Positions 16,801 through 62,443 of a stretch of DNA of 64,000 nt are shown piece after piece. A model generated the notes under the pieces. It ran no database searches and was not told the DNA's origin. It was given only the letters and a program-made list of their open reading frames with translations. Every line of letters starts with the position of its first letter. Position 1 is the stretch's first letter. A program made the translations under genes and the position numbers. This stretch comes from Scenedesmus sp. PABB004 (taxonomy: Eukaryota), in contig JABVCE010000034.1 of NCBI GenBank assembly GCA_014905635.1, positions 62,001 to 126,000 on the forward strand, given 5' to 3'.

Positions 16801-18085
16801 CACACGGCCGCGGCGAGCGAGGGGAAGCGGGCGGTGATCGCGGCCGAGTGCCAGCCCCGCGCCTCGGCGACGACGTGGCGCAGGCCCTGCGCGGCGAGGG
16901 CGCGGCGCCGCGGCGCGTGCGCGCGCGCGCGTGGGCGCGGCGCTGCGCTGCGCGGCGGGCGATGCTCACCGCCGCGCGGCGCCCGGCGGCACCAACAAGC
17001 GCTGCCCGCCCCGCCGCGCACCTGCATGTCTGCGAGCTCGCTCCAGCGGCAGGGCGTGACGTACGCGCTCACCGCCGCGCCCTCCTGCGGCTCGTACCGC
17101 GCAGCGCCGGCGCCCTGCAGCAGCCAGTCGCCGCCGCCGCCGCCCGGCGGCGCCGCGCCGCCGCCAGCAGCCGGCACGCTGCCGCGCTGGCCGCGCGCGC
17201 CGGGGCCGCCGCCGAGCAGGCCCAGGCCCGACGGGCCGGCGGCGCAGCCGCGGCGCGGGTCGTGGGGCGGCGGCTCCAGCGCCGTGGTCAGCGTGGTCAG
17301 CAGGCCCACCGCCTGGCCGCGCGGCACGCAGCCGACAACGAGCTCGCGCAGGCGGGGCAGCTGCATCAGGCGAAGCCAGAGCGCGTCGCGGCCGCCCGGC
17401 CCGCCCGCCGCGTGGCCCCACGCCTCCGCGCCGAGGCCGCCCGCCGGCAGGCCCAGCGCGCCCGCCGCCGCGCCGACGCCGACCGCCGCAGCGGCGGCCA
17501 CGGCCTCCATGCCGTCCCAGGGCAGGCCCGCCTCGGGGCCGTCCTGCTGCCCGGGGTGGACGTCGGCCAGGTCGGCCGCCACCACCAGCGTCAGCGCCGG
17601 GAGCTGCTCCAGCTGCAGCAGGCAGGCCGTGCCGGCCGGCGTGAGGCAGCCCACGCGCTCCAGGCTGCGGGCGCGGCGGCGCACGGAGCACCGCTCGTCG
17701 GCGGCGGGCCGGGGCGGCGGGCGAGGGCGGAGGGCGTCGGCCCGCGAGCACGCACCTCAGCTCGCGCAGCTCTGTGAGGACGCTCAGCGTGGGTGGCACG
17801 CAGCTCAGCCCTGCAAGCCGCAGCACCTGCAGCGGCGGACCCGCCGTCAGCTGCTGACGCAGCGGCCAGCAGCAGCGCGCGCCACGGCGGGCGCCAGCCC
17901 AGCAGCGGCGCGGCGCCGCGCGCGCCTGCAGTCGCCGCATGCAGGCCAGGCTGCCGGCCAGGAGTAGCGTGGAGGGGCCATCGAAGAAAACGGAGCGCCC
18001 CGCCGGCAGCAGGCCGGTCAGGTCTGGCAGCGGGCCCTCCAGCGCGCCCGTCTCGCCGGCGGAGGGGCAGCGGCTCCGCTGCGCC

Positions 18086-18124
<39 letters not shown>

Positions 18125-19177
18125 GCACTGAGGCGCTGGCGCGACGGAGAGCGTGCCGGCACGCGCGCGCCGACGCGTGCAGCGTGCAGTGCACCTTGAG
18201 TGCGGTGACGAGTTGCAGGCTCGTGAGGCATGTGAGGCACGACAGCGCCGCAATGCCCGCGCCCGACGCGGGCGGCACGCTGCGGGCGGCGCGGCGGCGG
18301 CGGAAGAGCACGGCGGGGTCGTGCGCGCGCGGCGCCGGCGCGGCGCTCCCGAGCGGAGTAGGGCAGCCCGGTCGCCCGCACGCGCGCGCCTCACTTGATG
18401 TACGCGCGGGGCTTCAGGCAGAGCTCCTGCAGCTGCCGCAGGCCCGACAGGTGGCGCAGGCTGCGCACCTGCAGCATGGCCTGCGGCCCACGCGGTGCAG
18501 CGCGTCGGCGCCGCCGCGCAACCAACGGCCCAGCTGGCGCGCGCCGCCGCCGTGCCGCCACCGCACCCCCGCGCGCCGCGCCGCCGCCCTCACCGTGTGG
18601 CACTCGAGGCGCAGCGCTTGGAGGCCGCCGCAGCCGCCCACGCCGGCGAGCGCGTCCTCGGTGAAGGGGAACTGCATCAACGCCAGCGCCGTCACGCCGC
18701 GCAGGCGCGGCAGCGCGGCAAAGTCGGCGACGCCGCGGCTCCCGCAGTCGGCCGCGAGGCTGCGCAGCGCCGTGAACGCCCGCGCCGCGGCACCGAGCGC
18801 GGGGGCGGGCGGCCCCGGCGCGAGCGCGTGGTGGCGGACGATGGAGCTCTGGAAGACCGAGCGGCACACGAGCCGCGGCACGCCGGCGACGCCGTCGGGG
18901 CGCGCCGCCGCGCCAGCGAGCGAGAGCGGGTAGAGCACGGCCAGCGAGCGGTCCACCAGCGCCTGCGAGTGCGGGCGGTGGTGGCGCGAGCGTGTTGCGG
19001 ATGAGAGGAGGGAGGGCGCCGCTGCCGCTGCTGCTGCCGCTGCCGCCGGCGCAGTCGCGGGGCCACCGGCGCCGCGTCGCTCGCCTTCCAGCTCCTCGAC
19101 ACCAGGCGCAGCGACGCATGGTCGCTGGGCGTCAGGTGCGCGAGCAGGAGCTCGTAGGTGTCCAGCTCGGGGACCAT
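13880..19177 (-). CDS. F-box-like plus leucine-rich-repeat (RNI-like) protein, multi-exon
   Basis: N-terminal LLLAHLTPSDHASLRLVSRSWK|ALVD (F-box-like, GC donor at 19084). Many LxxLxxLxxLxL repeats (LSGLRQLQELCL, LSCLTCLTSLQL, LSGLTSLRWLCL, MPELRFLDITW). Internal exon structure only partly resolved. Confidence 0.7.
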
Positions 19178-20263
19178 CGCGTGCCGGGCGCCAGAGGCGC
19201 GCGCGGCACCCCCTGCCGCCCCGCGTCAGAGCCCCCTCATCCACGGACGCGACGCATGGACAAACGGGCGGGCTGCGGCGCCAGTCGCCGCTCCGCCGCT
19301 GCTGCTGCTGCTCTCGGCGGCGCCGCCCACGCGATCGAGCGTGGCGGCCGCGGCGGTGGTGCTGCTGCTGCTGCTGGGTGTCTGGCAGCAGGATGTCTGG
19401 CGCGGTCGCCGCGTTGCGACTGAGCGGGGCTGTGGGGTTTTGGTAGGCGCGGCGACGTGCGAGGCGCGCATCCGCGTTTGCCGCGGGTGGGGGTGTTATT
19501 GGTCGCGCCGCCGCTGCGTTGCCGCGGGGCGCGAAACCTCATCCCGGGCCGTGTAGCCAGCAGTCTGGCGCGCCAACGCACGCGTCGCGCTACTAAGACG
19601 CACTCGCACACACAGGTCGTGTGCCGCCGCGCTGCCAGGCTAGGCGGGGGCCGCCGAGCAGCACGCGGGTGCGGGCTCGGTCGGCGCCCGCCCGCCAGCC
19701 GCTCGCGCGGTTATTCAGTGGGGCGCGGCCGCGCGGCCGGCGACGCCTAGCCTGAGAGTGCACCGAGCCCGCGCGCGCGCGCGCGGGCGGCAGTGCGCCA
19801 GACAGGCGAGGCGGGCGCGCGCCGCCGCGCGGCCCGCGCCCTGCCTCCACCTCCGCCTCAAGAGCCACCAGCCACGGGGCTGATGTTTGAAAACACTGGT
19901 AGAGGCGGCAGGGGAGGTCTTGACCAGATCCAGACCAGATTTGCCAGCAGGCCGTGCACTGCGCGGTGGGGCCGTCCGTGCAGCCCGAGAGCCAGACTTA
20001 TTGAAACCCCTTGCTATGGGAACACGAGCACTCGCTCGTTTTCCGCCCGCGACCAGCCCTGCAGCGGCACAGACCAGGCCGACCCGGCAAGACCCAGGCC
20101 AAGCCTCCGCGGAGCAGTTCTGCGCGGCGCGGCGCGGCGCGGCGCGGCGCGGCGGCCAGGTGAAGCGGGTGGGGCGGGTGGGCGAGGCGCGCGCGCCGGC
20201 TGCCGCGGCGCGGTGCGCAGGCGCGGCGCGGCGGGCAGGCGCGGCGGGCAGGCGCACGCACCT

Positions 20264-21283
20264 TCACGGGGCGGGCTCGGGCTCCGGCGCCGGGCTGGGC
20301 TCGGGCTCCGGCGCCGGGCTGGGCTCGGGCTCCGGCGCCGGGCTGGGAGAGGGCTCCGGCGCCGGGCTGGGCTCGGGCTCCGGCGCCGGGCTGGGCTCGG
20401 GCTCCGGCGCCGGGCTGGGAGAGGGCTCCGGCGCCGGGCTGGGCTCGGGCTCCGGCGCCGGGCTGGGAGAGGGCTCCGGCGCCGGGCTGGGAGAGGGCAC
20501 CGGCTCGGGCGACGGCGACGGGGTCGGCGCGGGGCTCGGGCTCTCGGGACTCGGGCTCGGGCTGGGCGTCGGCGGCGCAGGGCTGGGGGCGGGCGTGCCG
20601 CACGCGCCGGCGGCGGGCGCGTAGGGCATGGTGTTGGCGCCGCCATTGCCAGCAGGGTTGAGCTTGGACGCGTCTGCGCGGCGGCGGGCGCGGGCGGGCG
20701 GGCGTCAGGCGGCAGCCCCAGGCACGCGCATGTGGAGGGCACGCGGCGCGGGCGGCGCGGGCGTGTGCGGTCGTGCGGGCGTGTGCGTGCGCGTGCGTGG
20801 GCGCCGCTCACTGTTGTACTTCAGGTCAAGGCTGCGGGAGTCGATGAGGGCACCGACCGAGGCCCAGGCGACGCGGTCCATGTTGCCGCGGCAGATGCCC
20901 TGGCGCATGGCGTCCCACACGCGGTCGCGCGTCTCGGTGGTGTTCTCGCCGAGCCAGTTGACGTTGGAGCGCCACGCGGCGTGGTCGACGCCGTTGATCT
21001 TGATGACCTCGCAGGTCGCGGGCGGGCCGCGCACGCTGTCGACGGCGGTGGTGCCCGCGGCGGAGACCGCGGTCTTGATGTCGGCCACGGCGGCGTTGCG
21101 GACGAGGTTGGCAAAGTTGACCAGCGCGTCGTCGGAGCAGGTGCCCGTGAAGGTCAGGGCGTACTGCAGGAACTGGCGGCGCGTCGGGTCCCAGGCACCC
21201 TCGGGCGTGGCGCGCAGGGAGCGCGCCGACGCGAGCGACGCGCCGGCGAGGAGCGCCAGCGCCAGGAGCGGGAGGCACCGCAT
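20264..21283 (-). CDS. Secreted Ser/Pro/Glu-rich protein (~293 aa), truncated paralog of 23067-27194
   Basis: Signal peptide [20 protein letters not shown]. Exons 21283-20812 and 20673-20264. Ends in ([16 protein letters not shown])n then TGA, where the paralog reads ...PAPVK|intron. Confidence 0.7.
20274..20490 (-). repeat. 24-bp coding minisatellite, about 9 copies
   Basis: Units GGCTCGGGCTCCGGCGCCGGGCTG and GGAGAGGGCTCCGGCGCCGGGCTG on the + strand; absent from the paralog. Confidence 0.9.
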
Positions 21284-21789
21284 GGTGGTGGGTGGGCTCG
21301 TCGAGGTGTCTCAGGGCACTGCCGGGCTCGGTTGTCGCGCCTGCGGGGCGGCGCGGGAAAAAAGAGGGAGGCGGGTCAGCGCAATGGTGAGCGGCCAACG
21401 CGCGGGCGCCAGCGCCAGCGCGCACGCCCAAGCGCTGATTTTGCCAAGGTCAGACCGCTGTGGGCGCGTGCACAGCTGCGGCGTCCCCAGCGCGCGCAGT
21501 GCCGGGCGGGCGCTGAGCCGGGATGCCGGCGGCGGTGCCCCCGCGATCGCGGCGCTGTGACCGCCAGTACTCGCGCAAAGCGCTGGTACAGGTACGTGCC
21601 AGCGAACTGTTGCCAGCGCGAGCCGTGGCGCGCACGCGGGGGGGCGCGGGGCGGCGCAGCAGCAGTGATCCCACCTTTCGTGCTGGCTCACTCGGCGTGT
21701 GGCGGTGCAGCGTCGGTCCAAGGCCGCAGGGGTGAGCGCAGGCTAAGCGCGAGCGCTTTTTTTGGGTGCCGCGCCCGGGGCGTTCGAGC

Positions 21790-21797
21790 TATATATA
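21790..21797 (-). promoter_or_regulatory. Candidate TATA box of the duplicated secreted-protein gene
   Basis: TATATATA in a GC-rich background, ~500 bp upstream of ATG 21283. The paralogous position (27711-27717) reads CTATTTA on the minus strand. Confidence 0.35.
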
Positions 21798-22611
21798 GAG
21801 CGCCCAAATCAGCGCGACATGCTGTTACGTTGACCGCGAAGAAAGTGAGCCTAGGATCACGCAGAGGATCAGCCTAGGAGACCCGTTGGCCGCGCCGGAG
21901 TGCTCTCCACCCGCAGCGGTGAATTACAATTCGGACGCACTAGACCCCAGCTTGGGGTCCAGCGGCGGCTTGTGGCGGGCTCGCCCCAGCCTCCACTCAC
22001 TCCTTGCAGGACCGCCGGTCAGATCAAGCAGCAGGGCGCCGCGGCGTCACCGGCCCGGGCGCGGACCACACGGCCGCCGGCTGCGGCCGGCCCCGAGCGC
22101 TCAGGCGTGCGCGCGACCCGGCACGGGTCGCCGCCGCCGTCACGAGGGTGCTGCTGCGGCGGGCGGACCGGTGTGTGGGTGCCGTGGGTGTTACCGACCA
22201 CGACGCGAGCGGGAACCAATCAATAGGGCGCACAGCAACGGCGACGCTGCCTGCACTCCTCTTCGTTCCATCTCTGCTGCGCGCGCGCCGGCGGGCGGCA
22301 GCACACAGGTGCCGCGGCCGCCGGCGTCGGCGCGCAGGGGCGCCTTTCGGCGCGCGGGCGCCCTCCCAAGTCTTTGCAGACTCGGGCCAGGGCGGTGCCG
22401 CAAAGTCATTTGAGGCTAGCGAGAGGTGCCTCCTGTGCAGGTCAACTCAAATTTAGCCGCGGCCGCGTGCGCGGGCCGCGTGAAAGTGCTGGGTCGGTCA
22501 GGGTGGAGACACGACAGACAAGCCCGCCGCGTCGTAGGTCGAGGGATCCAGGGTCAAGAGACGACCGCAAAGCGAGAAGGGTCAGGCGCGCGCGCGCACA
22601 TGTGATGCGCG

Positions 22612-25600
22612 CGCGCGTCCGCGTTTGCCGCGGGTGGGGGTGTTATTGGTCGCGCCGCCGCCGCGTTGCCGCGGGGGGCGCGACCTCATCCCGGGCTGTG
22701 TAGCCAGCAGTCTGGCGAGCCAACGCACGCGTCGCGCTACTAAGACGCACTCAAGCACACACGCACACGTCACGTCGTGTGCCGCCGCGCTGCCAGGCCG
22801 GGCGGGGCCGCCGAGCAGCACGCGGGTGCGGGCTCGGTCGGCGCCCGCCCGCCGGCGCACGCTGCAGCGCGCGTGGGGGTCGTTCAGCGGGGCGCGGCCG
22901 CGCGGCCGGCGGCGCCTAGCCTGAGAGTGCACCGAGCCCGCGCGCGCACGCGCGGGCGGCAGTGCGCCAGACAGGCGAGGCGGGCGCGCGCTGGCGCGCG
23001 GCCCGCGCCCTCGTTCCGCCTCCGCCTCACAGCCTCAGAGCCACCAGCCAGGGGGGCTGCTGCTGCCTAGAAGCACTGGAAGGCGCCGGCGCCGGGGTAG
23101 GTCTGCCAGTAGGCCGTGCACTGCGCGGTGGAGCCGTCCGTGCAGCCCGAGAGCGTGTCGGTGACGAGCGTGCCGGCGCGCGCCGCGGAGGTGTAGGGGG
23201 CGGCGCAGCTGGTCATGCCGGCGGGGTAGCACGCCTTGAGCGCGGCGGGGCTGGAGGTGACGCCCGCCACAAAGAAGGGGAAGGCCACGTTGTCGGCGAC
23301 CGGGCAGCGCGTCGCGCCGGCGATGATGCAGCCCGCGGTCGTGCCCGCGCAGGTCGCCGCGGCGGCGCCGGGCGCGGTGTCGCACGCGACGGTCTGGCCC
23401 GCGGCGCAGCTCGCGAGGCTGCCGACGCAGGAGAGGACCTCGCCCGTCACGTTGGCCACAAACTTGGGGTAGCTCGTGGGGCACGCGGCGTTGCCGGCCA
23501 TGCAGCCGAGCAGCGTGGTGCTCGCGCCGCCCGTCGCGCTGATCTCGGCGGTGTACGCGGTCGCGTTGACGAGCGCGGCGCAGCCCTGGCTGACGGTGAG
23601 GGACACGCCCTCGCGGCACTCCACGAGCGCCGCGGCGGGGGCGTTGACCGAGGTGCGGGCGTAGAGCGGGAAGGTCCAGGCCTTGGGCACCGAGCCGATG
23701 GGGCAGCGCGCGCTGTTGAGGCAGCCCTGCAGCGTCTGGCCGTCGGCCGACTTGAGCTCGGTCGTGTAGGCGCCAAACGTCGCCGACGCGTCGCAGCTGG
23801 TCACGTTGGCCGCCTGGGTCTTGATGCAGCGCTGCAGCGCCGCCTCGAGCGCGCCGTCGAGGGCGTACAGCGGGAAGGTGTAGCCCGCGTCGGTGCAGGT
23901 CGTCGCGGCGCCGTTGATGCAGGAGAGCGGGCTGCTCGTCGCGGTGTCGGCCACGGGCGTGGTGCCGGCGACGCAGGCGCTGCCCGCGGTCAGGCAGCGC
24001 AGGATGGCCGAGCCGGCGGTGCCGTTGAACACCGCCACGGGGTAGGCCGTGTCGGGGCTAGGCACGGTGGGGCAGGACGCCACGCTCTGGCGGCACTGGT
24101 CCACGGTCGCGCCGGTCTGCATCGACACCGGGAAGCTCGCCGGGCAGACGGTGAGCGACGCGGCCATGCAGCCGATGAGGGCGTTGCCGGCGGGGTTGTA
24201 GATCTCGATGCCGGTGTAGCCGGTCACGCCCGCGCAGGTGGAGGTGCCGAGCACGTTGTTGGTGCAGTAGTCGAGGCCCGACGCGCCGTACAGCGTGAAC
24301 GGCCGCGCCGCCTGGGCGCACGTGGAGTCGCGGGTCATGCACTCGAGCACGGGCGAGGTCGTGGAGTCGCCGACGCGCACGGGGTAGGACGCGGGGCAGC
24401 CGGTCACCGCGACGACGCAGCCCTCGGTCGCGCCCTTGTCCTTGAGCGGCACCGCGGGCGCGGCGCAGCTGCCGGTCGCCGAGCAGCTCTCGAGCGTGGT
24501 GCTGACGTTGACCTTGCTCTGCGCGGCGCACGCGGCGGCGCGGGCGGGCGGGCGCGCGGCGGCGCGGTGAGCGGGGCCGCGGCGGGGCGGGCGCGGGCTG
24601 CGCTGCCGGCGCGGCGGGGGCTGCGCCGCGGGCGCGCCGCGGGCGCGAAGGGGGCCACCACCCGGGCGCGCACCGTGGTGAAGGGGTACGCGTCGGGGCA
24701 GATGGTGGTGGTGCTGAGCATGCAGCCCACGCGCGTCGCGCCGCTGACGATGGGGATGGAGTAGAGCCCGGTCGTGCCGGCGGGGCCGTTGGCGATGGTC
24801 ATCTGGCAGCCGGGGTCGACGTCGGCGGGCCTCCAGCAGTTGGTCAGCACGGCGGGCTGGCCGGCGGTGACCTCGGCGTAGAAGGGCAGAGTGTAGTCGA
24901 CCAGGGGGCAGGTGGTGTTGGGGCCGAGCTGCCTGCACTCCTGGACCTGGCCGAGGTTGGTGCGCACGGTCACGTAGCCGGTGGGGCAGTTGGCAGTGCG
25001 CGCGATGCAGCTGGTGGTGGTGCCGTTCACGTTGATCACAGGAGCGGGCGCGGCAGTCGTGTTGCAGACGACCGGCGGCGGCACGGGCTCGGTGCCGTTG
25101 GGGCCGCAGCTGACGAGCACGTTGTTGACGATCGTCGCGGCGTTGAAGTCGGACGGGCAGGCGGTGGCGCCGGTCTTGATGCAGCCGCGCACAAAGTTCT
25201 GGCTGCCGATGATGGGAATGGTGTACGAATCGGCGTTGACGTCGTTGGTCGTGGAGCCCATGCCGGCGGCGGTCAGGTCGCAGGTGGTGCGGCCGGGGCG
25301 GCACTCGACGGTCTGCGGCGGCGGCGGCGGCGGGCGGGGTCAGGGCGGCCGGGCGCAGGGCAGCAGGGAACGCAGCCAGCAGCCGCCGCGGGCGGCGCCG
25401 GCGGCGCGGCGCGGCGCAGCTGCCCCGGCCAGAGGCTGCGCGCGGCGGCGCGCGCTCACGGTGGGCGTGGTGGCGGGGGTCGCGCCGGACATGAGCATGA
25501 AGTTCTCGGCCAGCGGGCAGGGCGCGGTGGCCTCCAGGCACTTGATCGTGCGCGTCGCGCCGTTGGTGAAGACGCAGGTCGTCGCGCCGCCGCAGTTGTC

Positions 25601-27723
25601 GGGGCTCGCGGTCAGGACCTCAAGCGGGAAGTTCACGGGCGCCGCGGACGGGCACGCGTTGTTGGTCGGCAGCGTGAGGCAGGCCACGAGCGCGCCGGCG
25701 AGGGTCTCCGCGGGCACGGTGTTGTCGTTGGACGCGCCGCCCGGGACGTACGCGGGGCAGGCCGTGATGTCGCGGCACGCGGTCATCGCGTAGCCGGGCG
25801 ACGCGCGGTAGGCGACGTAGGGGCAGGCATTGTCCGCGGAGACGATGCAGCCGATGATGATGTTGCTGGCGTTGCGGATGGGCATGTCATAGGGCGGCAG
25901 GTTGCAGCTCGGCAGGGGCGGGCGGCACTCGTCGACCGCGCTCGGGCTGCCGGACCAGAAGCCAAACGGCTCGTTCGCGGGGCAGGGCGAGCCGGCGGTG
26001 AGGCACTTGACGATGGTGCCGGAGAGGGTCTTGGCCTCGACCGGGTAGGGCGCCGGGCAGGCGGTGCCCACGTCGGCGTTGGCGAGGCAGGCCTGGAGCT
26101 TGGTGCCGTTGATGGCCTGGACCGTGAAGCCGGCCTTGGTGCACAGGCACGAGTCGGTCGCCGCGTCGTACTCGCTGTTGGGCACCAGCGCGGAGCAGTT
26201 CTGCGGGGCGCGGCGCGGGGATGCGGGCGGGCGTGGCGGGTGGGCGGGGGCGCGCGCGCGGGCTGCCGCGGCGCGGCGCGCATGCCCGGCAGGCAGGCGC
26301 GGCGCGCGGCGCGCAGGCGTGCGAACGCACCTTCACGGGGGCGGGGCTCGGGCTCGGGCTGGGCACGGGCGACGGCGACGGGCTCTCCGGCACGGGGCTG
26401 GGAGAGGGCACCGGCTCGGGCGACGGCGACGGGGTCGGCGCGGGGCTCGGGCTCGCGGGACTCGGGCTCGGGCTGGGCGTCGGCGGCGCAGGGCTGGGGG
26501 CGGGCGTGCCGCACGTGCCGGCGGCGGGCACGTAGGGCATGGTGTTGGCGCCGCCCTTGCCAGCAGGGTTGAGCTTGGACGCGTCTGCGCGGCGGCGGGC
26601 GCGGGCGGGCGGGCGTCAGGCGGCAGCCCCAGGCACGCGCATGTGGAGGGCACGCGGCGCGGGCGGCGCGGGCGTGTGCGGTCGTGCGGGCGTGTGCGTG
26701 CGCGTGCGTGGGCGCCGCTCACTGTTGTACTTCAGGTCAAGGCTGCGGGAGTCGATGAGGGCACCGATCGAGGCCCAGGCGACGCGGTCCATGTTGCCGC
26801 GGCAGATGCCCTGGCGCATGGCGTCCCACATGCGGTCGCGCGTCTCGGTGGTGCTCTCGCCAAGCCAGTTGACGTTGGAGCGCCACGCGGCGTGGTTGGC
26901 GCCGTTGATCTTGATGACCTCGCAGGTCGCGGGCGGGCCGCGCACGCTGTCGACGGCGGTGGCGCCCGCGGCGGAGACTGCGGTCTTCATGTCGGCCACA
27001 GCGGCGTTGCGGACGAGGTTGGCAAAGTTGACCAGCGCGTCGTCGGAGCAGGTGCCCGTGAAGGTCAGGGCGTACTGCAGGAACTGGCGGCGCGTCGGGT
27101 CCCAGGCACCCTCGGGCGTGGCGCGCAGGGAGCGCGCCGACGCGAGCGACGCGCCGGCGAGGAGCACCAGCGCCAGGAGCGGGAGGCACCGCATGGTGGT
27201 GGCCTGCTCTGGTGGTCTCGTCGAGGTCGGAGGGTGTCGCAGGAGTACTCGCGGGCTCGGCGGCCGCGCCTGCGGGGAGGGAGGAGGGGAGCGGCGGGGC
27301 AGAAGAACGAGTGAGTCCGCGACCAACGCGCCGCGGAGGCCGGCGTGCAAGCCCAAGCGCTTCCCCTGCCCCAGGATCGGCCACACGCGCGGCGCGTGCA
27401 CAGCTGCGGCGCCCCCAGCGCGCGAAGTGCCGGGCGGGGGCTGAGGCCGGGATGCCGGCCGCCGGCGTGCGGCGCGATCGCGCTGGGGCCGACAGTACCA
27501 GCTCTGAGCGCTGGCAAGGGCGCGTGCAAGCGAACTGTTGCCAGCGCAGGGCGCGGCGCGCACGCGGGCAGCGCGGGGCGGCGCAGCAGTGATGGCCCAC
27601 CTGTCTGCTGTTCTCGGCTCGGTGTGTGTGCGGTCAGCGTCGTTGACGGCCGCAGGGTGCGCGCAGGCTAAAGTCGAGCGCTGTTGGCGGCTGCGCATGG
27701 GCGTTCGACCTAAATAGCGCCCG
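22612..27723. repeat. Tandem segmental duplication, copy B (full length)
   Basis: Near-identical to copy A in 3' flank, exon 1, intron 1 and exon 2, with more diverged similarity upstream. Confidence 0.9.
23067..27194 (-). CDS. Secreted ~1185-aa protein: N-terminal globular domain, (SP)n HRGP-like linker, long array of two-Cys repeats
   Basis: Five in-phase exons (27194-26723, 26584-26331, 26200-25460, 25312-24674, 24518-23067; GT-AG). Signal peptide, PSPSPSP linker, and recurring CPxxYP(V/F)...(L/I)xxC units. Confidence 0.85.
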
Positions 27724-27808
27724 TCGCGACCAAGCGAAGTCGTGATTGTCACTTCTGACCTGCACCCCGCCTTCAGGAAGTACCGCGGCGCTGAACCCGC
27801 CACCCGGG

Positions 27809-27859
27809 GGAAATTGGACGCTGGTTGGTCGAAAGAAAAGGAAATTGGACGCTGGTTGG
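27809..27859 (+). repeat. 20-bp direct repeat GGAAATTGGACGCTGGTTGG x2 (CCAAT on minus strand)
   Basis: Seen at 27809-27828 and 27840-27859 in an AT-richer intergenic stretch upstream of the 27194 gene. Confidence 0.7.
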
Positions 27860-28072
27860 CATTCTTAAGCGCGCGGGGCGGCGGGGAAGAACAGAAGAAC
27901 AGAAGTCGCCGACGGCGCCGACCAATCCCCACCAGCGCCGGCCGCGGCCTCGAGCCGGCGCGGGTGACGCTCGGCCCGCGGCCTCGAGCTGGGGCTGCCG
28001 CCCGGCAGCGCTCGCCACGCCGGCGGGGCTCGCCGCCCAGTCCATGGCCTCGGCCGCGCCCTCCAGCACGCG

Positions 28073-54429: not shown

Positions 54430-55884
54430 ATGGCCGGCGGCGGCGAGGAGGGCCCCATCGACGTGCAGGTCGTGGGGGATCACGGCCTTGTGTGGCGCGT
54501 GGAAGGTGGGCGGCAGCAGCAGGCAGCGGTGGCGGCCGCGGCACCAGCGGCGGCGGCGAACGCGCAGCAAGCCGCGCTGCCGCCGGCCGCCGGCACTCAG
54601 TCAGGCCTCTGTTTATCGCACCGACCGCCGCAGACGTGCTCAGACTGCGCACGCAGCACCGCCTGGTGGGCAGCATGGTCGGCGCCGTCGCAGGTGCGCT
54701 TGGGCGCGCGCTGCAGCGGCCGAGCGGCGGCCGCCGCGCGGCGGCCGAGCGCCGCCGCCGCCGCCGCCGCGGCCCGCCGCACGCCGGCAGGCTTCACGCA
54801 GCAGGTGGCGGTGGGCGGGCTGCCGCTGCAGCTCGCACCGGAGGAGGTGGCGCTGGCGCTGGCGCACGGTGCGGCGCGGAGCTGGGGGCCCGCGGTCGCC
54901 GCGCGGGCCGGCGCGCGCCGACGGCCCCGACCCCGTGCCCCGCCACCCCGCCGCCCGGCCGCCCGGCAGGCTGGGTGCGGCTCCACACCGCGGCCGTCGA
55001 CGTGCCGACCGCGCGCGGCGCGGCCGCGGCGGCCGCGGCGGCAGAGGCGCAGCGGGCGCTGACACTTGGCGGCGCGACGCTCGGCGCTGCGGGCGCTGCG
55101 GGCGAGCAGGAGCAGCAGCAGCAGGACGAGGAGGAGTGTTATGACGAGTACTATGCAGCATACTACGGCCTCCCGCCGCCGCAGCAGCAGGCGCAGCAGG
55201 TGCAGCAGCAGGAGCAGCCGCAGCAGGAGCAGCCGCAGTTGCAGCAGCAGGCGCAGCAGGAGCGGGCGCCCTGGCTGGCGGCGCTGGCGGGCGGGCAGGC
55301 GTTCGAGGTGCCGCTCACGGTGCAACAGCAGCCCGAGGCGCCGGGTGCGGGGCGCCGCGGCGCGGGGCGGCACTGCGCCCCGGCCACGGCTGCGCCCGCT
55401 CACGGCCCCTCACGGCCTCCGCCCCCTGCCCTCAACCGCAGGCGGCGCCGGCGGCGGCGGCGCGCTGCGCCCGCTGCCGCCGGCCGACTGGCCCTGGCCG
55501 GCGCGGCGCGGCGCGGGCGCGCGCGCGGCGGTGTTTGCCGACCTGCATGGCCGCGGCTACACGCTCAGCTGCGGGTCCAAGTTTGGCGGCGACTGGCTGG
55601 CCTATCCCGGGGACCCCCACCTCTTCCACGCGCAGTTTGTGGTGCGCCTCGCCGGCCCCGCCGGGCCGGGCGGGTGGGCGCCGGCCGCGTTTGCCGCGCT
55701 GTGCCGCGGCGTGCACGCGGCGCGCAAGCACCTGCTGCTCGCGGCGCCCGCGGGCGAGGCGCCCCGCGGCGGCGCCGCCGGCTGGACCGATGCGCCGGCG
55801 CTGCTGGCGCCCGGCGGCGGCGGCGGGGGCGTGCGGTACATCCTCGTGCCCCGCGCCGGCGGCGTGGACGGCGGCGGCGACTAG
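54430..55884 (+). CDS. TSEN34: tRNA-splicing endonuclease catalytic subunit SEN34
   Basis: LVWRVE|DVLRLRTQHRLVG, GLPLQLAPEEV, VFADLHGRGYTLSCGSKFGGDWLAYPGDPHLFHA, ARKHLLLA (Tyr/His/Lys triad present). Confidence 0.92.
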
Positions 55885-56249: not shown

Positions 56250-58861
56250 ATGGCGTCCCACGCGGCGCTGCGCGCGGCGCGGCGCGCCGCCGCTGCGGGC
56301 GCGCCGGCAGCGGCGACCGCGAGGGAACGCGGCCCGCGCGTGGCCTGGCTGCTCCTGCTGCTGCTGGGCTGCGAGCTGCACCACGGCGTGGCCGCGGCGC
56401 GCAGCTCGGAGCAGCCGCACTACGGCAGCGGCGAGCCGGGGCCGGCGGGGGCCTGGCTGCGGCGACGCCTGCAGCAGCAGGCGAGCTCGCCCGCCCCGCC
56501 GCCGGCGGGCGCCGCCGACGCGGCCAGCAGGTCTGGCCTCACCTACCCAGCAGGTGCGCGGCGCGGCGCGGCAGCCCCGCGCTGGCCGGCGCGGCAGCGG
56601 CCGGCCGCCAGGCGGGCGCGCCGCGACTGACCTGTCTGCCCCGCGCCGCGTGCTGCCGCAGCGCCCCGCTCCGGGTCGCGGCCGTCGTGCGAGTGCCCGG
56701 CGGGTCCCAGGGGCCCCATCGGCGCGACCGGGCCGCCAGGTGCGGGCGGCTCGAGGCCGGGGTGGGCGGCAGTGGGGGCAGCGCCGCGCGCGCCGCGCGC
56801 GCCGCGCGCGCCGCCGACGCCACGCCGCCCGCCGCGCAGGCGAGACGGGGCCGCGCGGAAGGCCGGGGCCTGAGGGACCACGCGGGTGCGTGCTCGCGAG
56901 CCGCGCACTCGCTGCAGGGCGCGCGGCGCGGGCGGGGCAGGGGGTCCCCTGAGCTGCCGCTCACGCGCCGCGCCCGCCGCCCGCGCGCGCAGGCCTCCGG
57001 GGCAGGGCCCGCAGGGGCCGCAGGGCCCCGGGGACCCGCCGGCCCGCAGGGAGAGAAGGGCCCGGCAGGAGGGCCGCCAGGTGCGCGGGGGCGGCGCACC
57101 GGCGTGGGCGGCGGGCGCGGAGGCCAGCCTGCGGCAGCGGCCTGACCGCCCGCCCCCGTTCCGCTCGCTGCGCAGGCCCCGCCGGCCCGCAGGGAGAGAC
57201 GGGCAGCCGGGGCCCGGCGGGCCCGACCGGCCCCACCGGCCCCGCCGGCCCAACCGGCCCGGCCGGCCCCCAAGGTGAGCTTGTCACAGCCCGCGCGCAC
57301 GCCGCCGCGCTCGCACGGCCGCGCCGCCCGCATCGCGCGTCGCCGGCCGGCCTCACCCGCGCCCCGCCCGGTGCTGCTCCGCCACGCCGCGCGCAGGCAC
57401 GGAGGGCACGTGCGCGCCGGGTGCGTGCGACCCTGCCAACATCACCGCCACGGTTGTCGCCACGCTGCTGAACCTGACCAACAACGGCACAAACCTCCAG
57501 CCCCTGCCAGGTGGGCAGACACTGCCGCCGCTGCTGCCGCCGTGCACACGCGCGCGCACGGGCCTGCCGTGCAGGCCGCCGACGCCCGCGCCCCGCGCCC
57601 TGCGCCCCGCGCCCCGCGCCCCGCGCCCCGCGCCGCCGCGCGCAGGCGGCAACCAGTCCTTCCAAGGGGCAACCATCACGCTCAGCGCCAGGCGCGCACA
57701 CGGGCGCTGCCGCGGCGGCGGTGCGCCCCCGCCCGGCCGCGCCGAACCGCGCCGCCGACCCCCCGCCCCGCCGCCTCCGCGCAGCGTGGTCGGCGCCAAC
57801 GCGACGAATGTCACGCTCAACGCGACCACCATCACGCTCAATGCTACAAACATGACGCTGAATGCGACCAACGCCACGCTCAATGCGACCAACATCACGC
57901 TCAACGCCAGGTGCGCCCTCCGCGAGGCGCGGCCCAGCGCGCGGGCTGCGCACGCCGCCCGCGCGCGCGTCGGCAGGCCCGCGCCAACCGCCGCCGCGCC
58001 GCCGCGCAGCACGGTCAGCGCCAACGCGACCAACTTCACGCTCAACGCCAGGTGCGCGCGGGGCGCCGCGGCGGCCCCGCGCTCGCTCCGCGCGCCGGCA
58101 ATCGGCGCGCGCTCCCGCCGGCCGCCGACCGCTGCGCGCCCGCCGCCCGCGCAGCTGGGTGGACGCGAACGCGACCAACGTGACCATCAACGGCAGCGCG
58201 CTCATCTACATCAATGGCACGTCCAATCTCACGCTCAATGCGACCAACATGACCGCCAATGCGACCAACATAACCATCAACGCGAGCACGCTAAACACCA
58301 CCAACACCACCATCATACTCGGCCCAAATACGACGCTCATAGACAACAGCAGCCTACCGACGGTCTTCGGTGCGCGCCCGGGGCACCGCCGTCGCCGCGA
58401 GCCCGCGCGCCCCGCCGCGCCGCGCGCCCGTGCGCCCGCGCGCCGCGCGCCCGTGCGCCCGCGCGCCGCGGCCGACCGCGCCCGCCCCCACCCGCGCGCG
58501 CGCAGGGGTGCGGTGCCACGCGATGTTCCGGGGCACCGTGAACCAGACCGACCTCGCGGTCGGACGAAACCAGCCCAACACGAGCCCCTACTTTGCAGTC
58601 GCAAAGATGCCGGGCGCGTGCGGCGACAACGCGACGCTCGTCGGCGGCGGGTGCGAGCTGCTATGCATCAATGCGGCCGACTACGAGCGCGTGATGCTGA
58701 CACGAAATATAGTCGTCCCCGGCACGGTGCGGTTCAGCGAGTCCGACGGCTTTGGCAGCATGGTCGACTGCGGCGCGAGCTACTATTCGACCAATGCCAC
58801 GACAGGGCCCTGCTTCCTGCGCGCGACGCCCTTCTGCTGCCGCCGCCTGCCCGTGACGTGA
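56250..58861 (+). CDS. Secreted collagen-like protein with NATNxTL heptad repeats and Cys-rich C-terminal domain (11 exons)
   Basis: Hydrophobic signal/anchor VAWLLLLLLGC, RRRLQQ motif, ~30 Gly-X-Y triplets over four exons, >30 N-x-S/T sequons, C-terminal ACGDNATLVGGGCE...ATPFCC. One 1-nt indel in the CCCC run at ~57026-57029. Confidence 0.85.
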
Positions 58862-58908
58862 GCGGAGGGTGGGGCAAGGCTGGCGGCGCGGGGGAGGGCG
58901 GGGCGGGG

Positions 58909-58985
58909 GCGGAGGGCGGGGCGGAGGGCGGGGCGGAGGGCGGGGCGGAGGGCGGGGCGGAGGGCGGGGCGGAGGGCGGGGCGGG
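58909..58985 (+). repeat. 12-bp tandem repeat (GGAGGGCGGGGC) x6 in 3' UTR, G-quadruplex-prone
   Basis: Seen directly. Confidence 0.9.
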
Positions 58986-59813: not shown

Positions 59814-60250
59814 ATGGCGGGCGGGCAGCAGCTGCGGCGCTACCTGGACGAGGCGCAGCGGCTGGTGGCCGAGTACGGCAAGGTGGGCCAGCGGGGAGCG
59901 CTGGGATGGGCGAATGGCGCGCACGCGGGCAGCGGCAGCGAGAGCAGCAGCAGCGGGCGAACGCCGCCGCCGGCGGCGGCGGCGGCGCCAGCAGCAGCGT
60001 GCCCCACAGCCGCCCCCTCCCCCTCTGCCGGCGCCGCCCGCCAGCACGTGCGGCCGCTGCCGCGCGAGCTCCGACGCCGCCGCCCGCCGCCGCCCGGCCG
60101 CCCTGCCGCCCGCTGCTCCCCCGGCCCCGGGCGCCGCGACGCGTCGCGCAGCCGCTGGTGCACTACGGCTTCATCCCCGCCATCATCCTGGCGGGCATGC
60201 TGCTCACCAAGCCGCGGCCGACCGTGGGGCAGCTGCTTTTCATGGGCTAG
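59814..60250 (+). CDS. TOM7: Mitochondrial import receptor subunit TOM7 (2 exons)
   Basis: MAGGQQLRRYLDEAQRLVAEYGK|PLVHYGFIPAIILAGMLLTKPRPTVGQLLFMG with the hallmark HYGFIP. Intron 59883-60151. Confidence 0.9.
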
Positions 60251-60477: not shown

Positions 60478-62443
60478 TCACATGAACAGCACGCGGCCAG
60501 GGTGGTGCCGGCACAGCGGCACCGCCAGCCCCGCGCACGGCGGGGCGGCGCACGCGCACGCGCAGGCGCCGCAGCCGCCGGGGCACAGCGCCGGCGGCCG
60601 CGCGAGCGCGCACGCGTGGTGGCGGTGGCAGCCGCACGCCGCCGCTGCCGCCGCCCAGCTGTGCTGCTGCTCCGCCACGACGGCGTGCGCGGCGTGCGCG
60701 ACGCATCCAGGCGCCCAGCCGCGCGCGCAGCAGTGCGGCGCCTGCGCGGGCGCCGCCCAGCTCAGCCCGCCTTGGCAGGCGGGCCCGGCGGCCGGGCTGC
60801 GTGGCAGCGGCGCACACGGCGCAGCGCAGGCGGCGCCCCAGCCGCACTGGTGGGGCGGGGCGCCGCCTGCCGCCGGCGCAGCGCTCCAGCCCCCGCCATG
60901 GCCAGCGCCGCCCGAGCACGTGGGGCAGCCGCAGGCCGGCTCCGCAGGCGCCGGCGCTGGTGCGGCGCGCTGCGGGCTGGCGGCGCAGCAGCCGCACGCT
61001 CCGCGCGCTGGCGCCGGCGCGGGGCTGCGCGGCGGCTGCTGCGGCGCGTGCTGGTGCGGGCGCCAGCCGCACGGGCCCGGGCTGCCGCCGGCGCCGATGC
61101 TGGCGCCCGCCAGCCGCGCGGCGAGCGCGCTGGGGCTGCTGTGCTGCTGCGGCGCGGGGCTCGCGGCACCGCGCGCAGCCGTGGCCGCAGCCGGCGAGCC
61201 GCCGGGCTCAGGGTCAAGGTCAGCGGGCCAGCTGGGCTCGGGGCTCCCCCAGCCCGAGTGGGCCGCGCCGCGGCCGCCGCCGCAGGGCGCCGGCAGCTGC
61301 CCGGGGGCGCGGCCGAGCGCGCCCGGCTGCGCGAGCTCGTGCGGCGCCGCGCTCCAGCTGCGCACCACCTCGACCGTGGCCCTGCGCCCCGGGGGCGCGG
61401 GGGCGGTGTGGGGTGCGGCGAGTTCGCGGCGCGCCGCCAGCCCCGGCCGCTGCGCAGCAGCGTGCAGGCCCGCGCCTGCCGCCGCCAGGGCGGCGCGCGC
61501 GCGGCGCACCGCACGACGAGGCAGTCGCCCGCGAGGTAGCGCCCCGCGTGCTGCTCCAGCAGCGCGGCGCGCACAAAGGCGGGGTACCCAGCCACCACGC
61601 CCGCGCCGCCGGGCCACGCCGCGCGGGGGCCGCCGCCGGGCGACGCCCCCGGCTTTGACGCGCGCGTGAGGTGGCGCCCGCGCCCCGACTGCGCGCGCAG
61701 GCGCGGGCGTGGCGGCAGTCGGGGTGCGGCGGCGGCCGCGCCGGCGCCCTCGACAGCGCGTGGGCATGGGCGCGGACGGCCCTCCTGCAAGGCGGCGGGC
61801 GCGCACCTGGTCCAGGATGGCGATCTCATGCAGCACGTGGCACGGCGCTGTCGCGGCGGCGGCGCCGTCGGGGCCGCAGGCGGTGAGGAAGACCGAGACG
61901 TGCCCCGCGCTGTCTGCCGCCACGCCCGCGGGCCAGACCTCCAGCCGGAACGACTGGCCGCCCGCGTCAAACGCGTCTGAGCACACGCGCGTGCCGGGGC
62001 CCAGCGAGCGGCAGAGCGCGAAGCTGCGCGCGCGCGGGCGTCGGTGGCGGGCGGCGCGCGCCGCGGCGGCGGCAGCGCGGCGCGGCGCGGTGCACCCACC
62101 CGCTGATTGTGTAGCAGTGCGCAGCGCCGACGGTGGTCAGCTCGCGGAAGCTGCTGCTCGCCTGCAGCCCCGGCCACGCCCAGGGCCGCGCAGCGCCGCC
62201 GCGCTTGGCCGGCAGCGACCGCGCCACGCGCCGCTCGCCGCCGCCGGCGCCGGCGCCGGCATCGGCGGCGGCGGGGCCGCCTGGCGCCGGCGCAGGCGCG
62301 GGCGCCGCGGGCTGCACGGGCGCCGGCGGCGTCGCGGGCTGCTCCGCGGGCGGCGGCGCCGCCGCCGCGGGCTGCTGCTCCTCGGACTGCTCCTCCGCCG
62401 GCGGCGGCGGTGCGGGTGACCCGTCCTCGGCGGCCTGCTCCAT
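60478..62443 (-). CDS. MATH (TRAF-like) domain protein with Cys/His-rich tail
   Basis: HCYTISG|FALC...SDAFDAGGQSFRLEVWPAG...HVSVFL, ILDQ|SGRG, GYPAFVRAALLE..YLAGDCLVVR|ATVEVV. No BTB domain follows. Confidence 0.8.

Follow-up and report, generated by a model that had tools for sequence, protein, structure and literature searches.

The plan of a short collagen rod capped by a globular domain is well known, given that bacterial Scl and BclA, phage fibers, C1q, the collectins, and adiponectin, as described in PMC8968730, all combine a short Gly-X-Y rod with a terminal globular domain. Within the chlorophytes, collagen-annotated genes have been reported in Ulva, with 28 in U. mutabilis and 4 in U. 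compressa, and a matrix role has been suggested in these reports (PMC9266709, PMC10762512). A macroalgal review, in its treatment of matrix fibers, describes collagens as metazoan (PMC8307928). Descriptions of green-algal walls usually center on HRGPs, cellulose, and algaenan. In the literature that we found, no protein of Scenedesmus spines or bristles is named. Chlorophyte HRGPs are secreted, Pro-rich proteins built as a rod plus a globular domain.

We analyzed a 64,000-nucleotide window of Scenedesmus sp. PABB004 DNA (about 80% GC), which carries a collagen-like gene on the plus strand at positions 56250 to 58861. Given its structure, its conservation, and a model of its C-terminal head, we consider it reasonably probable that this is a native nuclear gene of a Scenedesmaceae type for a collagen-like glycoprotein, which we infer to be secreted and to form a homotrimer. 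Like the proteins named above, the product joins a short rod to a terminal globular domain; it is unlike the Scl, BclA, phage, and C1q types in its head family, its N-glycosylated heptad stalk, and its origin in an intron-rich nuclear gene of a green alga. It shares with HRGPs the Pro-rich rod and globular domain but differs from them in having Gly strictly at every third residue, in the dominance of N-linked sequons, and in the absence of Ser-Pro runs, such that the long Ser-Pro or Pro-run shaft of the HRGP type is lacking and the model contains one short PPP. The gene does not represent a new category, because collagen-like genes are already annotated in Ulva, where they are known to us by annotation alone; no Ulva protein appeared in our head searches. 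The head family, its likely fold, and its algal setting are without a description in the literature found: no paper on the head family was recovered from sources that covered subscription work, including older bristle work, thinly.

Gene structure and genomic setting

Splice-site reading of the window gave 11 exons and 10 introns of 93 to 136 nt. Nine of the 10 introns have GT-AG ends and intron 7 (57692 to 57784) is GC-AG, while G occupies both -1 and +5 in 10 of 10 donors and GCAG closes all acceptors. The sequence-only reading had proposed an 11-exon, 10-intron gene over this interval with a signal or anchor, the motifs RRRLQQ and SCECPA, about 30 Pro-rich Gly-X-Y triplets with two short interruptions, collagen-part introns that split Gly codons, the motif CAPGAC, a repeated Asn-rich heptad, and a Cys-rich C-terminal head domain. 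Each of these was recovered here, although the hydrophobic core is too short for a clear membrane anchor.

Exon 1 (56250 to 56553) encodes the start codon, a 30-residue n-region, the hydrophobic core, a putative pro-segment, and a short Ser/Pro/Ala linker, and its Met is the sole in-frame one downstream of a stop that ends just before 56187. The core (aa 31 to 41, positions 56340 to 56372; hydropathy 2.73 over 11 residues and 1.65 over 19) belongs to a probable signal peptide. RRRLQQ (aa 71 to 76, 56460 to 56477) is a possible processing site of the subtilase/S1P type; our literature search found no algal support for cleavage at this motif. Exon 2 (56662 to 56739) supplies the CECPA Cys pair (56688 to 56702) and starts the collagen triplets at 56703, which continue through exons 3 (56840 to 56885), 4 (56993 to 57080), and 5 (57176 to 57274) and end in exon 6 (57397 to 57510), where they are followed by CAPGAC (57411 to 57428) and a conserved neck. 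An Asn/Thr-rich stalk starts in exon 7 (57646 to 57691), directly before the GC-AG intron, and runs through exons 8 (57785 to 57910; five NAT-x-x-T-L heptads), 9 (58010 to 58051; a single heptad), and 10 (58155 to 58369; three heptads and beta-like segments). The head completes the order along the product and is encoded by exon 11 (58506 to 58861), with the stop codon at 58859 to 58861. With an X placed at a break in exon 4, the product has 504 aa, 13 Cys, and 35 N-glycosylation sequons, and the hydrophobic core, the sequons, and the even number of Cys in the head bear on a possible secreted or surface location.

The assembly that holds the gene comprises 40 Mb in 80 contigs. The collagen gene is flanked by a tRNA intron endonuclease-like gene (PF01974) and a Tom7 gene (PF08038), with a MATH-domain gene farther out, and these are ordinary nuclear neighbors. 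No TGTAA polyadenylation signal was present within about 950 nt 3' of the gene.

The collagen shaft

The collagen part comprises about 31 Gly-X-Y triplets in runs of 11, 7, and 13 to 14, with two short interruptions. A scan of the assembly with PF01391 (Collagen) gave 31 bits at the gene, above the cut-off of 27.2, and exon 5 alone, which encodes 11 perfect triplets, scored 24.1 bits (E 3e-5), below that cut-off. We considered that the Gly-X-Y pattern could be an artifact of GC-rich repeats and no protein feature, given that most other PF01391 matches in the assembly are simple repeats. The scan returned 18 matches, and among the 15 loci inspected (three overlapping duplicates were skipped) one was the collagen gene and the other 14 were rejected as paralogs, being simple or low-complexity repeats that lack a neck, stalk, or head. 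The window contains four Pro-rich mixed Gly-X-Y runs, all of them at the gene locus, whereas 17 of 20 order-4 Markov nulls of 64 kb contained no such run and the other three contained 1, 3, and 1. The triplet register also survives four introns, and a Tetradesmus protein has an equal architecture and triplet count. The artifact explanation is therefore vanishingly unlikely and is already refuted by conservation.

Among the 27 triplets of certain frame, Pro occupies the X position in 19 and the Y position in 3, and Thr occupies Y in 6. Human collagens carry Pro at Y in about one third of triplets (PMC8968730, Table 1), and the shaft thus falls short of the animal-collagen trait of frequent, hydroxylated Pro at Y. 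In the comparison given by the same source, its Pro-at-X-rich triplets are closer to those of bacterial collagen-like proteins than to animal collagens. Stability of the shaft may come from the Cys clamps and O-glycosylated Thr. Introns 2 to 5 split Gly codons, which we rejected as a sign of animal-collagen ancestry because the G|G splice consensus favors split Gly codons and because introns 6 and 10, outside the collagen part, likewise split them. As a separate observation, the 2OG-Fe(II) oxygenase family PF13640 has 10 matches in the assembly, which are prolyl hydroxylase candidates by family only.

A frame discrepancy in exon 4

The best splice-site chain yields a coding sequence of 1514 nt, 1 short of a multiple of 3, and meets a stop at codon 230 when joined literally. 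The discrepancy of one base lies in exon 4, which also contains a one-residue interruption in common with Tetradesmus and in-frame internal acceptors at 57005, 57014, and 57023. The sequence-only reading had assigned an indel to 57026 to 57029. The discrepancy itself holds, but its pinning to those positions does not, given that in-frame routes exist without any indel and that the 5' half of exon 4 is readable as Gly-X-Y in two frames, so that the position of an indel cannot be fixed. The Tetradesmus obliquus protein WIA43142.1 confirms the reading frame in the 3' part of exon 4, since both proteins have exactly 14 triplets between the one-residue interruption and the first neck Cys.

When the literal routes that link exon 2 with exon 5 were enumerated, several stayed in frame without an indel. 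Skipping of exons 3 and 4 gives 459 aa in perfect triplet register, and joining of exon 2 to the internal acceptor at 57005 gives 484 aa. The normal donor of exon 3 (56886) is the sole phase-2 donor of the collagen part; use of the weak alternative donor at 56890, which is off-consensus at -1 and +5, with the normal acceptor gives 505 aa with the register kept and one Gly changed to Ser.

We considered whether the family could be real and functional as described while the window copy is a recent pseudogene, with a genuine exon 4 frameshift that is not bypassed. Such a reading would account for the stop at codon 230, for the loss of the relatives' second short collagen segment and the expansion of the stalk in this copy, and for the fact that the in-frame routes need weaker sites or the skipping of a well-formed exon. 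It fits poorly with a head that retains every Cys, with the intact state of the remaining exons, with the failure to find another copy in the assembly, and with the location of the break among G and C runs in sequence of 85% GC. Assembly slips are common in the G and C runs of very GC-rich sequence. Given that this is the sole copy found in the assembly and that the gene is otherwise intact, we favor an assembly slip as the most likely explanation of the break, or else its bypass by splicing, and regard a pseudogene as improbable.

The head family and its relatives

The head is a domain of 117 aa with eight conserved Cys. A search of 1.84 billion representatives gave 10 matches, of which seven were true homologs and three (P0005, P0009, and P0010) were dropped as repeat artifacts, and a profile search gave eight matches, three of them new. 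The named relatives, KAF6253360.1 of Scenedesmus sp. NREL 46B-D3, WIA43142.1 (P0011), and EukProt EP00775 P009778 of Hariotina reticulata, are hypothetical or unnamed proteins that all belong to Scenedesmaceae, and the remaining members are unnamed Logan or JGI proteins. The window head is 32 to 54% identical to those of its relatives. In the 11-member alignment, none of the eight Cys is lost from a row that spans it, the terminal Cys-Cys is invariant, and the window head keeps 20 of the 22 columns that are invariant among the relatives (artifactual first Met dropped), with conservative changes in the other two. At the level of sequence, the architecture of collagen, neck, and predicted all-beta head is real and conserved.

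Pfam gave no match for the head, and COLFI, NC1, gC1q, and C-type lectin gave none for the head or for any of the 11 alignment members at E up to 10. PHROGs and PDB sequences gave no match, and the ESM Atlas, whose search leaves out small clusters, returned no usable match for the head of the window protein or of WIA43142.1. Three queries found the head as a single copy in the 40-Mb assembly. Searches among longer proteins gave no match, a weak test given that WIA43142.1 exists yet escaped it, and no complete relative carrying a signal peptide came to light. The sequence-only reading had suggested looking for the head across algae, bacteria, and giant viruses, which produced algal homologs and none in the viral or prokaryote sets, at limited sensitivity: narrow patterns matched 0 of 22 viral contigs and 0 of 6 prokaryote genomes, and phage records gave no match. 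Pattern scans of metagenomes gave 11 matches, none of which was confirmed, and the 3 of 193 that passed in a further metagenome scan were rejected as chance matches, having no head context.

These searches bear on the possibility that a phage or bacterial collagen-like fiber gene was acquired by horizontal transfer and later filled with introns. The X- and Y-position composition of the triplets is prokaryote-like when set beside the values in PMC8968730, and the collagen part of WIA43142.1 matches phage tail-fiber families. However, these matches are confined to the low-complexity collagen part, and the head is without a match in PHROGs, in phage records, or, by narrow patterns, in the viral contigs and prokaryote genomes. 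An N-glycosylated head with eight Cys also suits the eukaryotic secretory route. We therefore give horizontal transfer little credence and retain the native nuclear gene as our reading.

In WIA43142.1, collagen (PF01391, 29.7 bits) leads into a Cys-x-x-Cys neck, after which come another short collagen stretch, a short stalk, and finally the head. Both it and KAF6253360.1 have the Cys-Cys neck and head family in common with the window protein, and 13 of 18 neck residues encoded by exon 6 are identical to KAF6253360.1 (pairwise E 4e-7); the neck is probably a short helix. In these two relatives a second short collagen follows the neck and the stalk is about 35 residues long, whereas the window protein lacks this second collagen and its heptad stalk extends over about 140 residues. 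A second subgroup consists of P0003, P0013, and P0007, with P0003 84% and 52% identical to the other two, and in P0003 collagen triplets directly precede the head. In P0012 and in P0016, itself present on 20 contigs, the neck leads to the head without a break, and P0019, P0014, and P0013 have unrelated sequence up to the Gly at which window intron 10 falls. This difference points to spliced and unspliced sources and suggests, from the proteins, that intron 10 is common to the relatives.

The heptad stalk

Across aa 217 to 388, sequons are present on 31 of 33 Asn, compared to a mean of 8.9 and a maximum of 16 in 2000 shuffles. Self-identity over the nine heptads peaks at 44 for lag 7 and 46 for lag 14 and is at most 24 at other lags, so the sequons exceed shuffle chance and the period is 7. 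Exon 9, with the same phase and ends as exon 8, resembles a shortened copy of it, and exon 10 bears a weak likeness to the relatives' short stalk (pairwise E 0.057 versus P0012). The stalk was found nowhere in the assembly beyond the gene locus, matched no solved structure, and had no useful match among PHROG and PDB sequences. Pfam matches to DGF-1 beta-sheet (E 7e-4) and, on P0012, to Hexapep_loop (E 0.007; the sole Pfam match among the 11 alignment members) were set aside as below cut-offs or weak. In the sequences compared, the long heptad stalk is missing from relatives; like the loss of the second collagen, it is peculiar to the Scenedesmus sp. PABB004 genome and no family feature. The alternation of hydrophobic and N-glycosylated positions suggests that the stalk most likely forms a glycan-coated rod of intertwined beta-strands, which would act as a species-specific spacer.

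Predicted fold of the head

An AlphaFold2 model of the head built with 11 sequences, several of them nearly identical, is nearly all beta, with a pLDDT of 87 and a pTM of 0.78; the single-sequence model has a pLDDT of 35. We compared the model with 48,161 solved chains, and all fold matches have a Z below 8, the range that the tool calls common for unrelated arrangements. The top match was the third module of the PCSK9 C-terminal domain (7anq, Z 6.5, rmsd 2.4, 74 aligned; 4k8r, Z 6.4). Plasmodium APC-beta took first place in a second comparison (Z 5.6, rmsd 3.1, 74 aligned), and further matches were a pyocin fiber tip (Z 5.5, rmsd 3.9, 90 aligned), WSSV VP37 (Z 5.1), Toxoplasma APC-beta (Z 4.8), H-type lectins (Z 4.1 to 4.5), and resistin (Z 4.0). 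The next rows unrelated to the PCSK9 group had Z values of 5.5 and 5.1, and Foldseek against PDB and viral libraries gave nothing at E 0.001 or better. Resistin, H-type lectins, and fiber tips are homotrimers.

In the alignment, residues 3 to 114 of the model correspond to PCSK9 605 to 682. The last head Cys falls on PCSK9 Cys679, if the strand is ungapped, and the first is out of register with Cys608, the partner of Cys679 in the description of PMC7929951. For PCSK9 and APC-beta, PMC6294395 describes a pseudo-threefold, double-layer beta-prism that is disulfide-linked, and the PCSK9 C-terminal domain is described as resistin-like (PMC9816786). The predicted head fold thus resembles modules that assemble in threes, and the head plausibly works as a beta-prism trimer cap. 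For such a threefold prism we would predict the disulfide pairings C3-C111, C38-C110, C49-C88, and C53-C102 in the head. The algal head is larger (117 residues, versus about 75 to 90 for the PCSK9, resistin, and APC-beta modules) and differs from them in having no sequence or Pfam match, in its eight Cys, and in occurring once per chain behind collagen.

Proposed assembly and function

The sequence-only reading had put forward a homotrimeric surface fiber that could be a bristle, adhesion, or mucilage component, and the conserved architecture and the resemblance of the head fold to threefold modules support it in part. We propose that the chain would enter the ER and that the pro-segment would be cut after RRRL. 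Three heads could then assemble as a beta-prism locked by disulfides. With the register set by this cap, the chains would zip N-terminally by way of stalk and neck and form a triple helix of about 96 residues, roughly 28 nm long, with Cys pairs that clamp both ends. The heptad stalk would form a glycan-coated, beta-stranded spacer, and the resulting lollipop of about 40 nm would present a binding head at a distance from the wall or matrix. We favor this role, in which the protein tethers a binding head to the wall or matrix, over a soluble recognition protein or an appendage subunit.

Collectins and C1q combine a short collagen with a Cys pair on the N-terminal side and a globular head at the C-terminus, and the window protein has the same layout. 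We considered that it could be a soluble recognition molecule of this kind, with a head that binds carbohydrate or microbes and no structural part in the wall. The presence of H-type lectins and a pyocin fiber tip among the fold matches is in line with this, as is the single-copy state of the gene, which is less typical of bulk wall material. Even so, no lectin family matched, the lectin Z values are low, and a common fold does not show function, so we regard a soluble recognition role as possible but on balance unlikely.

The gene could alternatively encode the subunit from which Scenedesmaceae build their bristles, spines, or fine wall fibrils. All named relatives fall within this family, and the spines and teeth of Scenedesmus are reported as glycoprotein (PMC9372998), with spines described as nano-fibrillar tubes (PMC13238346). 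Nothing in the examined data ties the gene to appendages, however, and a 40-nm rod would require a mode of polymerization that is absent from the sequence. Wall proteomics of S. obliquus, in which most wall protein escaped identification, does not mention collagen in the text and one supplement (PMC11839794). We find a structural subunit of appendages a poor fit and improbable. The account of chrysophyte silica bristles in PMC12589706, considered for its bearing on a bristle role, was irrelevant to it.

A bolder proposal, which we hold as speculative and rather doubtful, would have Scenedesmaceae build a surface appendage or coat from collagen that is truly triple-helical and carries as its cap a free homotrimeric beta-prism of the PCSK9/resistin/APC-beta type. 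It would represent a green-lineage counterpart of animal defense collagens or bacterial collagen adhesins, and exon duplication would tune the length of its glycan-coated beta spacer. If the head is indeed a homotrimeric beta-prism, the fold of PCSK9, resistin, and apicomplexan perforins would extend to green algae and would represent a new collagen trimerization module. The gene offers a specific, conserved candidate in which an undescribed family of heads with eight Cys is joined to a shaft with little Pro at Y and to a stalk with dense N-glycosylation sites.

Public models of the relatives look faulty, given that the head start is missing in KAF6253360.1 and a RING domain stands at the front of WIA43142.1, where it is probably a fused neighbor. 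Since public gene models miss or fuse the head family, it may have escaped notice in wall proteomics of these algae. In a shifted frame, residues 210 to 226 of WIA43142.1 are compatible with the start of the window collagen at 13 of 17 positions, which is a hint only, given that the next best place reaches 12.

Stalk exons and flanking sequence of the collagen-like gene

Near-identical sequence closes exons 7 to 9 of the collagen-like gene, which encode the first part of the stalk, six of its Asn-rich heptads included (window 57646-58051), pointing to growth of the stalk through exon duplication. The intron that follows exon 7 (57692-57784) is of the GC-AG type, and its local consensus is perfect apart from the GC donor. 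Directly after the stop codon, a G-rich repeat of 12 nt runs in tandem (58895-58985) and represents a possible G-quadruplex-forming stretch of the 3' UTR.

Upstream on the plus strand, an intron-containing gene resembling the catalytic subunit of tRNA splicing endonuclease (54440-55884; PF01974, E 2.5e-9) has its 3' end approximately 370 nt from the collagen-like gene. This endonuclease-like gene carries a long, Gln-rich insertion. Downstream lie a two-exon Tom7 gene on the plus strand (59815-60250; PF08038, E 6e-8) and, on the opposite strand, a MATH-domain gene (60478-62136; PF22486, E 2e-9).

Related sequences and base composition

For the Tetradesmus obliquus relative (WIA43142.1), the public model appears to join a RING-finger gene to the collagen-like gene (residues 1-215), and the first collagen exon may have been read in a shifted frame. 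Elsewhere in the assembly containing the window, a Gly-X-Pro repeat (GMP/GLP/GAP; 10 + 9 triplets) occupies positions 1501-1620 of locus L004, away from the collagen-like gene, with neither neck nor head close to it.

Window 18001-28000 (~10 kb) differs from the remainder of the window in its reduced GC content (74-77%) and steadily positive GC skew (up to 0.2), and is possibly a repeat or mobile element.
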